A stretch of 64,000 bases of DNA. Source: a virus. Lineage: Duplodnaviria; Caudoviricetes. Shown one piece after another: positions 4,818-53,701 of the stretch. The stretch is taken from the IMG/VR virus record IMGVR_UViG_3300047313_000015, positions 1-64,000 of that record; one strand, given 5' to 3'. Every line of letters starts with the position of its first letter. Within the stretch, counting starts at the first letter, position 1. The notes below the pieces were generated by a model, which worked only from the letters and a program-made list of their open reading frames with translations, did not search any database and had not been told where the DNA came from. The translations under genes were made by a program, and so were the position numbers.

Positions 4818-5364
4818 CACCGGGGCAACCCGGGACAATGACGAGAACAAACTAGATTACGAAGGTTTCCTGTCACCCATCGTGCTGGAACGATTCGCCT
4901 GGTACATGCACCTGCACCGGCAGCAGGCCGATGGTAAGCTGCGTTCGGCAGACAACTGGCAAAAGGGCATGCCGCTCGACGTTTACATGAAGAGCCTGTT
5001 CCGGCACTTCATGGACCTGTGGGCTATCCACAGGGGTGAAGAACAAATCGCCATTAACGTGTACACCGAGGAAGTTCTTTGCGCGATCATGTTCAACGTG
5101 ATGGGTTATCTCCACACGGTGCTGAAGGCGCAGACCCCGGATGACACGGGACAGAAAGCCTTTGCCTCCCGGTTCTCGTCCTACGAGGGTCGCCTGCATC
5201 CGGGTGAAACGGTGTCCGGCCCTGATGGCCGCCTGTACCAGGGACAGGTGATGGTCAGTGGCGCTGACCTGGAGAAGGTGCTGGTCGAGGCGGCTGAGCT
5301 GGTAGGCGGTAAGGACAACGCGGCATATACCCGGCTGCTTGCTGCGGTAGGTGTCCAGCAGTAA
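4804..5364 (+). CDS. dATP/dGTP diphosphohydrolase-like (DUF5664-type) protein
   Basis: FDTGATRD..KLDY, DNWQKGMP, SLFRH, AIMFN motifs. Confidence 0.7.
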   Translation: MREFDTGATRDNDENKLDYEGFLSPIVLERFAWYMHLHRQQADGKLRSADNWQKGMPLDVYMKSLFRHFMDLWAIHRGEEQIAINVYTEEVLCAIMFNVMGYLHTVLKAQTPDDTGQKAFASRFSSYEGRLHPGETVSGPDGRLYQGQVMVSGADLEKVLVEAAELVGGKDNAAYTRLLAAVGVQQ

Positions 5365-8514: not shown

Positions 8515-8657
8515 TTCGCTTTTTGTACTGGGACTCGGTTAATTTCTGGCGCGTAGCACCGCACAAACATGCCGTGTTCCCCAGCCATTGGTACGACAAA
8601 GATTCGACCCGGCGTATATGCGGACGATGCCACCGCTGGTACGAGCCACCTGCATAA
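8511..8657 (+). CDS. small CxxC protein (48 aa)
   Basis: ATGA overlap with the nrdJ stop; CGRC. Confidence 0.45.
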   Translation: MIRFLYWDSVNFWRVAPHKHAVFPSHWYDKDSTRRICGRCHRWYEPPA

Positions 8658-8700
8658 AAACAACCACCTGCGGTACACAGCAGGAAGCCAGTTTTACGCA

Positions 8701-8737
8701 GGCGACCCTCTGATGTATGAGGTCAGGGGGTTGTTTG
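8701..8737 (+). terminator. intrinsic terminator
   Basis: GGCGACCCTCTGA / TCAGGGGGTTGTT stem with T-rich tail. Confidence 0.55.
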
Positions 8738-8747
8738 CTGTCCGGGG

Positions 8748-8777
8748 TTGGCAGCTTGATCGATCTTGTGCTATGCT
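8748..8777 (+). promoter_or_regulatory. sigma70-type promoter
   Basis: TTGGCA-18nt-TATGCT with TG extension, just after the terminator. Confidence 0.5.
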
Positions 8778-8928
8778 GCTTGCAGCCGGACGATACCGGT
8801 GGTACCCTACAAGTGAAGGCCTGCCGCCACTGGGTAGGTTCCGGTCTCCCGGAACCGTGGTGATCAGTACGTAGTTGCTGATCACTTGAAAATCCCGGTG
8901 GGCAGGCCTTTATCCAGGAAGGATAACC

Positions 8929-9441
8929 ATGAGCAACAGTACCATGGAACGTACAAGAACCTGCTCCGTCTGCGGGGAACCGATCACCGAGCGCAACAAA
9001 ACCGGCATCTGCGCCCGGACTTTCGATTGCCGGTCAGCCCTGCAAGGGGTGAGACATGCCAACGCGAAGAGCGGGAAAACCACCCACGTTGAGCTGCTCC
9101 TGCCGCCCGCTTACGAGCTGGAAGACGAGGGCGATGAGTATGCCCGGGATGCGCTGGGTAATCTCATCGAGATGGTAGACGAGACCGCCATCCGGATCGC
9201 GGTGTCCGGTGTCCGGTGCGTACCGATGACCGAACGGGAGCGGCGCATCGCCGTGCAGAAGATGATCGATCTGGGGTACCGTCTCAGAGAGATCGCCGCC
9301 AACATCGGCACCAGCTCCACCAAGATCCGTCCTGTGATCGAGGGCCTGGGCTACGAGCTGATTCCGAGGCGCCATCCAGGAGGTCATGGACTGCGGGAAG
9401 CTACCGAGATCAGAAAAATCAGGGATGAGGTTGCAAGCTGA
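8929..9441 (+). CDS. HTH DNA-binding protein with N-terminal Zn motif
   Basis: CSVCG...C; C-terminal LREIAANIGTS HTH; GGAAGG RBS. Confidence 0.7.
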   Translation: MSNSTMERTRTCSVCGEPITERNKTGICARTFDCRSALQGVRHANAKSGKTTHVELLLPPAYELEDEGDEYARDALGNLIEMVDETAIRIAVSGVRCVPMTERERRIAVQKMIDLGYRLREIAANIGTSSTKIRPVIEGLGYELIPRRHPGGHGLREATEIRKIRDEVAS

Positions 9442-50124: not shown

Positions 50125-50537
50125 TGCGCCTGGTCAGAAACCATGTCCGTGTCGTCACGATTTTTGGGGCGGTATTCTCCAGTGCTGCGGCAACGCTGGC
50201 CGCGCTGGCCGCTATCGGCGTAATCGCGCCTCCGGCCGGTGCAGCCACCAGCCCGAAGCTTCCGGAATGGGTGCAGGTGGAGCACTACCGCTACAAGTCC
50301 AGTGGTGAGGCTTGCGTCCTGGTCGGCACAGCCGGGCACAAGCACGTTGGCGCGGTCTGCCGCGATGGCAGCGCACACCGGCTGCCGGACAGTACGCCGC
50401 ATAACGCGCTCATCTCACCAAGTGCGCTGCCGCCCTGGCTTCACTCCTGGGGTGGTGGCCGGGTGATCGTGATCGGTGGCGGTAACGCTGACAGCACTCT
50501 GCGCCTCCGGGTGACCGGAGGTGTGGCTGAGAGCTAG
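50124..50537 (+). CDS. secreted / membrane protein
   Basis: signal-peptide-like N-terminus. Confidence 0.6.
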   Translation: MRLVRNHVRVVTIFGAVFSSAAATLAALAAIGVIAPPAGAATSPKLPEWVQVEHYRYKSSGEACVLVGTAGHKHVGAVCRDGSAHRLPDSTPHNALISPSALPPWLHSWGGGRVIVIGGGNADSTLRLRVTGGVAES

Positions 50538-50654
50538 ACACTGCCTATCGGGGTGGTCCGGACTGTCGGACCACTCTGGTAGAGTGTGCCTAGATAAGCA
50601 CACCGGCTAAGGCAGCAAGCATGATGCCGCTGCCAGGAAGAGAAGAGGAATGTC

Positions 50655-51746
50655 ATGTCAAAGGAATTTCTGGGCGAGGTCAAGGTCTGCCGCAGCGCCT
50701 ACGCTGTGGACCGTTCGGAGCCGCTGTTCATTTACCTCGGCGTGTGCACCGTGCATAACCGGCCGGTTCGGGTGGACATGAACCGGAACTTCGGTTCATT
50801 CACACAGATCCCGTGCCCGGAAGGCGACACGGTGAAGGGTGAGCGGCTGAACGCGGTCACCACTACGCTGGAATGCGACGGATCATGCCGTTCCGCATTT
50901 CACTCCGAGTGCGTCTGCGGCTGCGGCGGAATGAATCACGGGCTGTCATTCCTTAACAAGCTGATCGCGGAGTCTGGTGGCACTCATTTCGTTACCGGTG
51001 CGGTGCTGGATGAGCAGCACGTCACCGATTCCGCGCTGGCCACGTGGCGCGTTCGCCGCCAGAAGGTGGAAGAGAAGCGCGTGCAGCGGCAGGCCGCAAA
51101 GGCTGACCATGCGCGTGTCGCCTTTGACGAGTGGGCGGAAGTGCACAGCGATGTCGTCCGTGCCCTGGACGGCTGGCATGAGCACCGTACCGACACGGCG
51201 TGGCAGGACGCTACCGGCGTTAAGTGGGGTGCCCACATTCTGGTGGACTTCGCTATCCAGACTCACGGCGGCTGGAACGGCAAGCCCAAGCCGCTGACTG
51301 AGAAGCAGATTGCCCTGGCATTCAAGCTGCTCGGTGAAGGTGCGGAGCGCGTGTCCAAGAATGCTGCACGGGCCGCCGACGCCAAGCCCGCACCGGAAGG
51401 CCGCGTCACGATTGACGGCACGATTGTCAAGGTCACGGCCCGTGAGGGATTCAGCTACGACCAGATTCAGCATCAGATGATCGTTTCGAGTGACGGATTC
51501 GCTGTGCTGATGACTCTGCCTACGGCGATAGCGCAGGAGGCCTACCGGCTGAGCACGTCCAGCACTCTGCGGGATTCTTACGACGGTCCCGATTACGAGG
51601 CCATCGGCGCGCGGCTGACCGGCGTTCTGAAGGGTGCTTTCATCCGGGTTACCGTGAATGTCGAGCGATCCCGCAAGGATGAGTCATTCGGCTTCGGGAA
51701 GCGTCCCAGCGTCGTTAGCTGGGAACTGCCTGGCAAGCAGAACTAG
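50655..51746 (+). CDS. hypothetical protein (Cys-rich N-terminus, OB-fold-like C-terminus)
   Basis: CDGSC..A....C.C.CGG.NHG; LTEKQ; FGFGKRP. Confidence 0.75.
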   Translation: MSKEFLGEVKVCRSAYAVDRSEPLFIYLGVCTVHNRPVRVDMNRNFGSFTQIPCPEGDTVKGERLNAVTTTLECDGSCRSAFHSECVCGCGGMNHGLSFLNKLIAESGGTHFVTGAVLDEQHVTDSALATWRVRRQKVEEKRVQRQAAKADHARVAFDEWAEVHSDVVRALDGWHEHRTDTAWQDATGVKWGAHILVDFAIQTHGGWNGKPKPLTEKQIALAFKLLGEGAERVSKNAARAADAKPAPEGRVTIDGTIVKVTAREGFSYDQIQHQMIVSSDGFAVLMTLPTAIAQEAYRLSTSSTLRDSYDGPDYEAIGARLTGVLKGAFIRVTVNVERSRKDESFGFGKRPSVVSWELPGKQN

Positions 51747-51798
51747 GCGGTAAGGTGGCCGGGTGCAATGCCCGGCCACCTCGATCAGAGGGGAAGCA

Positions 51799-52269
51799 AT
51801 GAGAGACATCGATCACTACCGGCAATGGAACCGGGCATTCGATAGTGCCCGCGCCGCTGCGGCGGAAACTCTCGCCAATGACAGTGCGCTGGTCCTGCGA
51901 TCAATACACGCCGGGCTCCAGAGTCATCTGTCGGAGAACCCGAACGACGCTCGCTCGCTGGGCTTGTGCGCCGGTATCACTGACGTGCTGGATCAGAGAG
52001 TGCAGCAATTCGAGCCGGAAGGGCCACAGGAGCCGGAGCGTGTTTACTACGTTCAGGTGAAAGCCAGCCCGCGAAGTCACACGCTCACTTACAAGGGCCC
52101 TTTTTTCATCCCGGTGGGGAGTACGGTAACGCTCCCGCCACTTCCGTGGATGAACCACGAATGGACCGCCGAGGTTATCGGCACCGATAAGGGTGAGGGG
52201 TACAACGGCGAGGGGTACAACGGCGATATCAAGTCCGTTCTTTCCGCTACCTTCAAGCAGCGGAACTAG
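51799..52269 (+). CDS. hypothetical protein
   Basis: GAGGGG RBS. Confidence 0.65.
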   Translation: MRDIDHYRQWNRAFDSARAAAAETLANDSALVLRSIHAGLQSHLSENPNDARSLGLCAGITDVLDQRVQQFEPEGPQEPERVYYVQVKASPRSHTLTYKGPFFIPVGSTVTLPPLPWMNHEWTAEVIGTDKGEGYNGEGYNGDIKSVLSATFKQRN

Positions 52270-52275
52270 TTCGTA

Positions 52276-52448
52276 AGGCACGTTACAGATACCACGTCCG
52301 TGTCCGGGGCTTGGGGATAGTGCCAGCACGCTACGCGACTGGCACGGTTACCGGTACGTAGTTGCCGGTAACTGATTCACCTGGGAGGTTTCGCAATGCC
52401 AGGCCATTAGGTGCCTGGTAAACAGCGGCCGGTAATGTGGGAGTGCCT
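52276..52448 (+). ncRNA. candidate multibranched structured RNA
   Basis: closing AGGCAC/GTGCCT plus at least three internal hairpins. Confidence 0.5.
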
Positions 52449-52485
52449 GTTCTCGATAATTCAGCAAACGGAAGGAATGTGGAAA

Positions 52486-52611
52486 ATGACACACCCAATC
52501 GTCACAATTGACAGTTTCAACCGTACGTGGGTCGGCGGCCGATTGCTGACTGCGGATGAGGCCCGGCGTTACTGGCTGGACCGGGACGCCGACCGCGCGA
52601 AACTACGCTAG
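52486..52611 (+). CDS. small hypothetical protein (41 aa)
   Basis: GGAAGG RBS. Confidence 0.5.
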   Translation: MTHPIVTIDSFNRTWVGGRLLTADEARRYWLDRDADRAKLR

Positions 52612-52658
52612 GAGAGAGTGTCAGGGGGTGCCGGTACACTGGTGCTGGCACCCTTCAC

Positions 52659-52737
52659 GGGACTGGGCGGTATCGACGGATAAGGAAAACCGCACGCGGA
52701 CCTTATCCGGACCTGGGTTCGATTCCCAGCAGTTCCA
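52659..52737 (+). ncRNA. mini-tmRNA: tRNA-like domain only, no mRNA-like domain
   Basis: GGGACTG/CAGTTCC-A with G3.U70; D-loop GGTATCGAC; P2 CGGATAAGG/CCTTATCCG; GAC linker; T arm CTGGG-TTCGATT-CCCAG. Confidence 0.8.
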
Positions 52738-52752
52738 CGTAATTGCATAAAG

Positions 52753-53015
52753 TGTGTGCCCTGTTGAGGGTGTGCGTGCGGGCTAGCGAAAGCTAGCGGG
52801 GCCAGAAGCAAGCGCAAGACGCCTGGTCGCGCCGGATTTATCCGGCCCATGGTGGGGAGAAGCCCGAAAGGGCCTAATCGCATGTAAAGGCTGCATGCAG
52901 ATCCTTTGGCAACGTCAATAAGACCATAGGTACGACGGGTTGGCCGGATTTGTGTGGCGGTAAGGTCTACTGCCCTGTCCCACGTGCCGCACGTACAACC
53001 CCATCGGGGCACACG
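52753..53015 (+). ncRNA. candidate ~260-nt structured ncRNA
   Basis: long closing stem, two GAAA tetraloop hairpins, no credible ORF. Confidence 0.6.
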
Positions 53016-53040
53016 TAAACCAATGAGAGAAGGAAACGGC

Positions 53041-53463
53041 ATGACCATTATAGAGATACGGGCTCAGCTAGACGCTCAGATCGCCGAGCCGGTTAACATC
53101 AGGGGCATGACCCGTGACCAGCGCCGGGCGGATATGGACCGCTGGCTGGCGGACTGCCTGGCACAGAGCGAGCGGCTGGATGAGGAGCATTTGCTCCTCG
53201 GGATCGGCCGTACTGCTGCGGTTAACATGACGCACGAACTCATCTGGGAATGGCAGTATGCCACATCCTCCAGGTGGTTCCTGGCTCTTCCTGAGCGTTA
53301 CATGACTCCCGATAGTATGTCTCGCCCGGACTGGGATCACAGCCACTACCCCCACGACGAGCACGGGAACATTGGCCGGGTTGCCACTCTTCAGCGCCCA
53401 GAGACCGCCGAGGATCGACGCGCTGCGGAGATGGTCCGCGCTGCGCTTGCAAGTAACGACTAA
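53041..53463 (+). CDS. hypothetical protein
   Basis: GAAGGA RBS. Confidence 0.65.
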   Translation: MTIIEIRAQLDAQIAEPVNIRGMTRDQRRADMDRWLADCLAQSERLDEEHLLLGIGRTAAVNMTHELIWEWQYATSSRWFLALPERYMTPDSMSRPDWDHSHYPHDEHGNIGRVATLQRPETAEDRRAAEMVRAALASND

Positions 53464-53500
53464 GCGCAACCGCGCTCTACGGAATCAGAAAGGTCAGGTC

Positions 53501-53692
53501 ATGATTCTTACCTTCACCGAAACACCACTCAGTCCCGAAGATGCTTACGCCGCGCTGCGGGCGCTTGGATACGGCAGTAGGTTCGCCGGGCAGGCTGTCG
53601 CGGAGGCTGAGGCTGAGGGACAATTCTACGGCCCCGATCTCGAAGTCACCTCAAGTGACGCCGGGATCATGTTCACCGTTCGCAGCATTTAG
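53501..53692 (+). CDS. small protein with RuvA C-terminal-like motif
   Basis: EDAYAALRALGY. Confidence 0.55.
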   Translation: MILTFTETPLSPEDAYAALRALGYGSRFAGQAVAEAEAEGQFYGPDLEVTSSDAGIMFTVRSI

Positions 53693-53701
53693 GGAGGCAG
53701 C

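Follow-up and report, generated by a model that had tools for sequence, protein, structure and literature searches.

A structured foldback element next to a TLD-only tmRNA-like gene in the early region of a phage genome

A 263-nt intergenic element in the genome of an actinophage-like virus (positions 52753-53015) is bounded by inverted-repeat ends that enclose 205 nt, and it is unusually structured, most strongly as RNA of the + strand. The element is non-coding, occurs in a single copy, and is missing from kin that share the neighbouring TLD-only tmRNA-like gene (mini-TLD). We rate it as a structured spacer of the foldback kind in the early operon of a phage and not as an established tertiary RNA or a partner of the mini-TLD. 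Our best reading is tentative, with a probability of about 0.4: a non-coding foldback insert specific to the lineage, which would be transcribed together with the early operon and whose stem would act as a module for dsRNA processing or 5'-protection. All positions refer to the window, i.e., the whole 64,000-nt stretch of DNA that was analysed. This window covers the initial 64 kb of a 97-kb IMG/VR record, has a GC content of 0.575, and includes a block of tRNA genes at 61-64 kb.

Table 1. Features of the foldback element and its surroundings (window positions)
Feature	Position	Strand	Basis or remark
TLD-only tmRNA-like gene (neighbour, outside the element)	52659..52740	+	Rfam RF00023, 56.1 bits
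TAAA, left flank	52748-52751	.	one base ahead of the element; 4-nt match, AT-rich flanks, weak
Closing stem, 5' arm (left inverted repeat)	52754..52781	+	repeat search; pair probability 0.87-1.0
Hairpin A, GCUAGC-GAAA-GCUAGC, stacks on the closing stem	52782..52797	+	probability 1.0
Hairpin B, GGCCAG/CUGGUC	52800..52828	+	probability: outer stem 0.99, inner stem 0.76
Hairpin C, GCCGGA-UUUA-UCCGGC	52831..52846	+	probability 0.96
Distal 139 nt, overall fold uncertain	52848..52986	+	z -1.2 alone; positional entropy
Distal hairpin GCCC-GAAA-GGGC	52862-52873	+	
Distal hairpin GCAUGUA/UGCAUGC	52880-52898	+	
Distal hairpin GGCGGUA/UACUGCC	52956-52974	+	
Closing stem, 3' arm (right inverted repeat)	52987..53014	+	repeat search; pair probability 0.87-1.0
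TAAA, right flank	53016-53019	.	directly after the element
140-aa gene, no function assigned (neighbour)	53041..53463	+	own RBS; 25 nt past the element

The two arms of 28 nt are complementary at 82% of positions by Watson-Crick pairing and at 93% when G-U pairs are counted. The inverted repeat that they form ranks third longest in the 64-kb window among repeats with arms within 400 nt. In the MFE fold the arms make a closing stem of ~26 bp, which has two 1x1 mismatches, one bulge and 3 G-U pairs on the + strand. The stem leads into a junction bearing hairpins A, B and C and into a distal domain with three hairpins. Hairpin B has an A-rich 6-nt bulge (AAGCAA) and an inner part GCG-CAAGA-CGC. 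The word GCCGGAUUU of hairpin C is found again at 52943-52951, and the resulting alternative pairing is 9 kcal/mol worse. Only four hairpins with a GAAA loop and a stem of at least 4 bp exist on the + strand of the whole window, and two of these four are inside the element. The TAAA pair on the flanks could be a target-site duplication.

A sequence-only reading of this DNA had described the element as a compact multi-junction RNA starting about 15 nt after the mini-TLD. Every stem that it listed was found in its place. The spacing is 12 nt from the end of the Rfam match and 15 nt from the discriminator base. Two of its pairings, ATGGT/ACCAT and TCCGGCC/GGCCGGA, did not survive folding: the complementary words exist, lie outside the MFE fold, and forcing them to pair costs ~9 kcal/mol.

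Folded as + strand RNA, the element reaches an MFE of -131.5 kcal/mol (z -6.1), and 0 of 200 shuffles were as good. The RNA of the minus strand reaches -111.8 (z -4.3). All 263-nt windows of the 64 kb were also folded on both strands, and the energies were regressed on GC. In this GC-corrected scan the element lies at -4.0 SD on the + strand, second of 1203 windows, and at -1.7 SD on the minus strand. The confident helices contain 5 G-U pairs on the + strand versus one position that is G-U only on the minus strand (one-sided p ~0.1 for this 5:1 count). The preference for the + strand is moderate. With DNA energy parameters both strands are significant (z -3.9 for + and -3.1 for minus).

The fold signal is distributed unevenly along the element. 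When the inner 139 nt are folded alone, z is -1.2 and 18 of 200 shuffles do as well; the mean positional entropy of these 139 nt is 0.68 versus 0.1-0.2 elsewhere in the element. Hairpins A-C give z -3.4, and about half of the fold signal comes from the closing stem together with these three proximal hairpins. Since the inner 139 nt are no better than shuffles, the multi-junction interior has no statistical support. The weak distal fold and the cost of the forced pairs indicate that the signal is carried by the closing stem with the proximal hairpins and not by an ornate interior. The earlier proposal of a structured RNA is partly supported: the strong + strand fold bears it out, and a large tertiary-structured RNA stays unproven.

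In the same scan, the + strand of the window is most strongly structured at 8640-8950 (-5.0 SD). This stretch is intergenic, lies upstream of a gene starting at 8929, and bears one copy of a conserved-loop hairpin that is described at the end of this text.

The element is not inside a gene: it is separated by 12 nt from the complete TLD upstream and by 25 nt from the RBS and start codon downstream. A coding reading was rejected. The + strand of the element has stops in all three frames. On the minus strand there is an ORF of 146 aa (52608-53048), which overlaps the TLD gene too, and it has no GC3 bias (0.60/0.60/0.55 versus 0.64/0.46/0.73 in the neighbouring genes). No relatives of its protein were found among 5.8 billion predicted proteins. 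The absence of coding function assumed in the sequence-only reading is thereby upheld, and a conserved ORF does not explain the region.

The genes that flank the element have no Pfam or PHROG function and all point rightward. Neither a sigma-70-like promoter nor a + strand terminator-like site was found in 51700-53700. Because the element has the same orientation as the flanking genes and there is no promoter- or terminator-like site, read-through transcription is the simplest expectation. According to the inverted-repeat search and the window-wide folding scan, the early block holds many other + strand intergenic stems; the element has no sequence similarity to these other stems of the same phage.

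The upstream neighbour is of a known kind. TLD-only tmRNA was first noted in mycobacteriophage DS6A and was proposed there to titrate SmpB (PMC4131195). The likeness to DS6A concerns only the neighbour at 52659-52740, and TLDs of this type occur without the 263-nt element in the kin and in 18 other contigs; the element is a separate unit. In the RF00023 match 6 nt stand in for 294 model positions, and the TLD is closed, i.e., its own 5' and 3' ends are already paired. A role of the element as the tmRNA mRNA-like domain, or as the coding piece of a two-piece tmRNA, was rejected: RF00023 covers only 52659-52740, and the partial match to RF04321 (tmRNA coding piece) scores 16.3 bits with E 0.56.

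TLD-only tmRNA-like genes are widespread in actinophage-like contigs: 18 IMG/VR contigs (L005-L022) and three Streptomyces phages, GiJojo, pSt2308 and LuckySocke (L002-L004). They share a short AAAGCCGCACGCGGA-type cap that replaces the mRNA-like domain. The TLD of GiJojo is overlain by the beginning of a CDS annotated as "hypothetical protein" (gene 44), and those of pSt2308 and LuckySocke are unannotated. In the window the TLD cap at 52690-52697 (CCGCACGC) could pair without a mismatch with 8 nt (52774-52781, GCGUGCGG) in the closing stem's 5' arm; CCGCACG is repeated in the 3' arm. This complementarity is probably a coincidence, with ~0.3 such matches expected by chance.

By sequence comparison, the element is an orphan outside every described RNA family. 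At the gathering threshold, the covariance models of Rfam 15 identified no family in 52753-53015, in agreement with the earlier inability to assign one. With E up to 10 only chance-level matches of 13-16 bits appeared (plasmid antisense, miRNA and lncRNA models). Neither blastn nor nhmmer identified a second copy in 26 related loci. The element was unmatched in phage and plasmid collections by "distant" blastn, and megablast of 10 kb gave no homologue of it. In the collection of isolated phages the sole DNA-level matches by blastn are to the TLD, in Streptomyces phages; the plasmid matches of the ArdC gene are to Bacillota plasmids only. A single-sequence covariance model of the element (R1) was applied to the window, to 43 loci and to 10 related IMG/VR records in full length, and recovered only the element itself and its own reverse complement at 29 bits. 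Scans with patterns built on the inverted repeat, on hairpins A, B, D and G, and on a clade-specific TLD anchor gave 0 matches in collections of viral, species-genome and metagenome contigs. In particular, a degenerate pattern of the terminal inverted repeats (TIR) had 0 matches in 2.9 million viral contigs and 185,579 species genomes.

Several known classes were considered and rejected. There is no match to RF00028 at E up to 10 (group I intron) and no covariance-model match to ROOL or GOLLD. As to retrons, Y RNA and omega/reRNA, the 97-kb record, which is ~87% complete, has no PF00078, PF05731 or PF07282 (the controls responded).

Kin of the phage were reached via protein anchors, namely the genes of 140 aa, 168 aa, 363 aa and 41 aa, which led to two lineages. 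Both lineages keep the TLD at 80-89% nucleotide identity and are without the element. In the first one (Logan contigs L030-L033) identity to the window is 86-89% across the upstream structured stretch, the small ORF and the TLD; after ...CAGCTCCAC follow 20-odd bases including an RBS and then a 108-aa gene. In the second one (JGI contigs L035-L041) the TLD is 80% identical and is followed by CGTAATT..., the same first bases as in the window, and immediately past them by an RBS and a homologue of the 168-aa gene of the window phage. All 18 further viral contigs with a TLD also lack the element. In a separate assembly of this phage from Logan, the gap between the 41-aa and 140-aa genes is likewise 429 nt; therefore the element is not an assembly artefact.

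Since the kin keep the TLD without the element, it is an add-on module and an indel, neither part of the TLD gene nor an obligate partner of the mini-TLD. The downstream gene differs among all three lineages, and together with the absence from kin this points to an indel at a recombination-prone junction. The suggestion that the element is co-processed or acts jointly with the mini-TLD is thus not supported: TLDs of the kin are directly followed by an RBS and a gene, and the other 18 contigs do without the element. Any function that it has is dispensable, as the kin live without it.

The structured stretch 52276-52448, noted in the earlier reading, is kept at 84-87% identity in both kin lineages, unlike the element (its counterparts are L030:4086-4260 and L035:5147-5230), and would be a better covariation candidate than the 263-nt element. 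The 140-aa gene, with more than 160 metagenomic relatives, behaves like a cassette that can move; at L030:2501-2926 it is located between two copies of an intergenic stem that matches window positions 50529-50624.

An RNA-level module fits best with the strand-biased stability, the clustering of GAAA loops, the non-coding status and the stem-rich early block. Transcription, processing and a benefit to the phage are what we infer, and they would proceed as follows. The early polycistronic RNA would include the element, whose ends would zip into a quasi-continuous stem of ~26 bp stacked on the GAAA-capped hairpin A, with small and very stable hairpins decorating the interior. A stem of more than two helical turns would thereby be offered to an RNase III-type enzyme. 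Cleavage, or the structure alone, could let the upstream tRNA-like RNA mature independently of the downstream message. The mRNA of the 140-aa gene would be left with a structured, nuclease-resistant 5' end, and a compact RNA of ~210-260 nt would be released.

Double-stranded RNA stems longer than two helical turns are classic substrates of RNase III; examples are the precursor stems of rRNA and the sites in T7 early mRNA. The predicted stem of ~26 bp is within the length range of such substrates (~20 bp or more). Like the stems of rRNA precursors and the T7 intergenic sites, the element has a long double-stranded stem with small internal loops that flanks an RNA segment, and like the T7 sites it separates genes within an early polycistronic unit of a phage. 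What it encloses is different, namely a hairpin-bearing segment of 205 nt in place of an rRNA or a plain loop. The length of 263 nt far exceeds the need of a processing stem or a 5' stabiliser, and this counts against our best reading. So do the lack of homologues, and hence of conservation or covariation behind any helix, the shuffle-level fold of the inner 139 nt, the dispensability in kin, and a strand preference that is moderate, with DNA folds significant on both strands.

A different account treats the element as a MITE-like foldback transposable element or a remnant of one. The repeats would then be transposase-binding ends, and the fold would be a by-product, neutral or incidental to the transcript. 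We consider this account unlikely. In prokaryotic MITEs the TIRs span 23-29 bp, the targets are intergenic and AT-rich, and the transcripts are thermodynamically stable; the anatomy of the element agrees with the review that describes them (PMC10969869). It shares with them imperfect terminal repeats (28-bp arms, 82% complementary), small size without a transposase gene (263 bp with no coding capacity), an AT-rich intergenic target (here an AT-richer spot with TAAA on both flanks), a stable transcript fold, and presence or absence among close relatives, being found here and missing in both kin lineages that share the TLD. The element differs from them in that one copy is known and the target duplication is doubtful. 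Multiple dispersed copies, which are expected for MITEs, were not seen: the 97-kb record holds a single copy, the TIR pattern has no matches in the viral contigs and species genomes mentioned above, and BLAST was empty in phage and plasmid collections. The TAAA repeat is only 4 nt long with the left copy offset by one base, and the downstream gene differs in each lineage, so that there is no empty site to compare. In addition, clustering of GAAA tetraloops on one strand is unexpected for a neutral DNA element. Mobile elements of mycobacteriophages (MPME) are ~440 bp in length and carry a small ORF, in which the element, 263 nt without an ORF, differs from them. An origin as a mobile insert and a use of the RNA structure are mutually compatible, so the MITE-like account and our best reading are not exclusive.

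The sequence-only reading favoured a new trans-acting structured phage ncRNA, which would be released from the early transcript and bind a factor of ribosome rescue, tRNA repair or defence. The strong + strand fold is in line with this view, and so are two C(GAAA)G tetraloops and an A-rich bulge, which are common in RNAs with tertiary contacts. The surroundings of the element are also a patch of RNA genes that includes the TLD-only tmRNA, 12 nt upstream, and the structured stretch 52276-52448. The large ornate phage RNAs ROOL and GOLLD likewise occur near tRNA islands (PMC12286853). The element resembles them in being phage-encoded, located beside tRNA-type genes, rich in hairpins and of unassigned function. 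It differs in size (263 nt versus roughly 580 to more than 800 nt) and in having no covariance-model match to them; it belongs to no family and hence has no covariation-supported fold. Against a trans-acting RNA are the lack of any homologue in the Rfam, BLAST, nhmmer, R1 and pattern searches, the interior that is no more stable than chance (z -1.2), and the absence from kin that keep the TLD. Rfam matched it neither to ROOL or GOLLD nor to another family, and the phage record is without RT, Ro60 (TROVE) and TnpB as candidate partners. We therefore regard this view as improbable. Its most specific version is slightly more so: that the element is the first member of a new compact (~260 nt) class of tertiary-structured phage RNAs, acting in trans on the translation-rescue or tRNA machinery beside the TLD-only mimic, with relatives too diverged or too rare to be found.

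Least probable of all is a DNA-level site that works in single-stranded or cruciform form, as a priming signal, a replication or recombination site, or a cluster of protein-binding palindromes. In its favour, both strands fold significantly with DNA parameters, most hairpins are perfect palindromes, hairpin A includes GCGAAAGC, reported from phage origins as an unusually stable DNA mini-hairpin, and the junction is recombinational, with a different downstream gene in all three lineages. Against it, the RNA signal of the + strand exceeds both DNA signals, none of the adjacent genes is for replication or recombination (they lack any Pfam or PHROG function), neither iterons nor an AT-rich stretch suited to unwinding is seen, and the kin are without the element.

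If our best reading is true, the element is one more structured spacer that controls RNA processing between phage early genes. This would be unsurprising, and it would help to annotate the early regions of actinophages. Phage RNAs that lie beside tRNA-type genes (ROOL, GOLLD, TLD-only tmRNAs) are an open functional problem. Should the element prove to be a stable trans-acting RNA, it would be a small and tractable member of this group beside a tmRNA mimic, and thus an easy experimental handle. The mini-TLD and the element are separable, so models in which they form one system are unsupported.

A recurring hairpin was observed in the window and in the kin. It has a conserved 12-nt loop, GTACGTAGTTGC, and its stems are unrelated in sequence yet mutually complementary. 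The sites are 8860-8885 and 52347-52372 in the window, ~4194-4220 in L030, and ~5281-5300 and ~5533-5556 in L035, where one such hairpin is directly 5' of the mini-TLD. A looser variant of the loop, GTACACTGGTGC, precedes the TLD of the window (~52626-52653). With two exact copies of GTACGTAGTTGC in the window versus 0.12 expected, the hairpin seems to be a genuine recurrent motif, which may serve as an RNA hairpin for protein binding or as a phage-specific signal.
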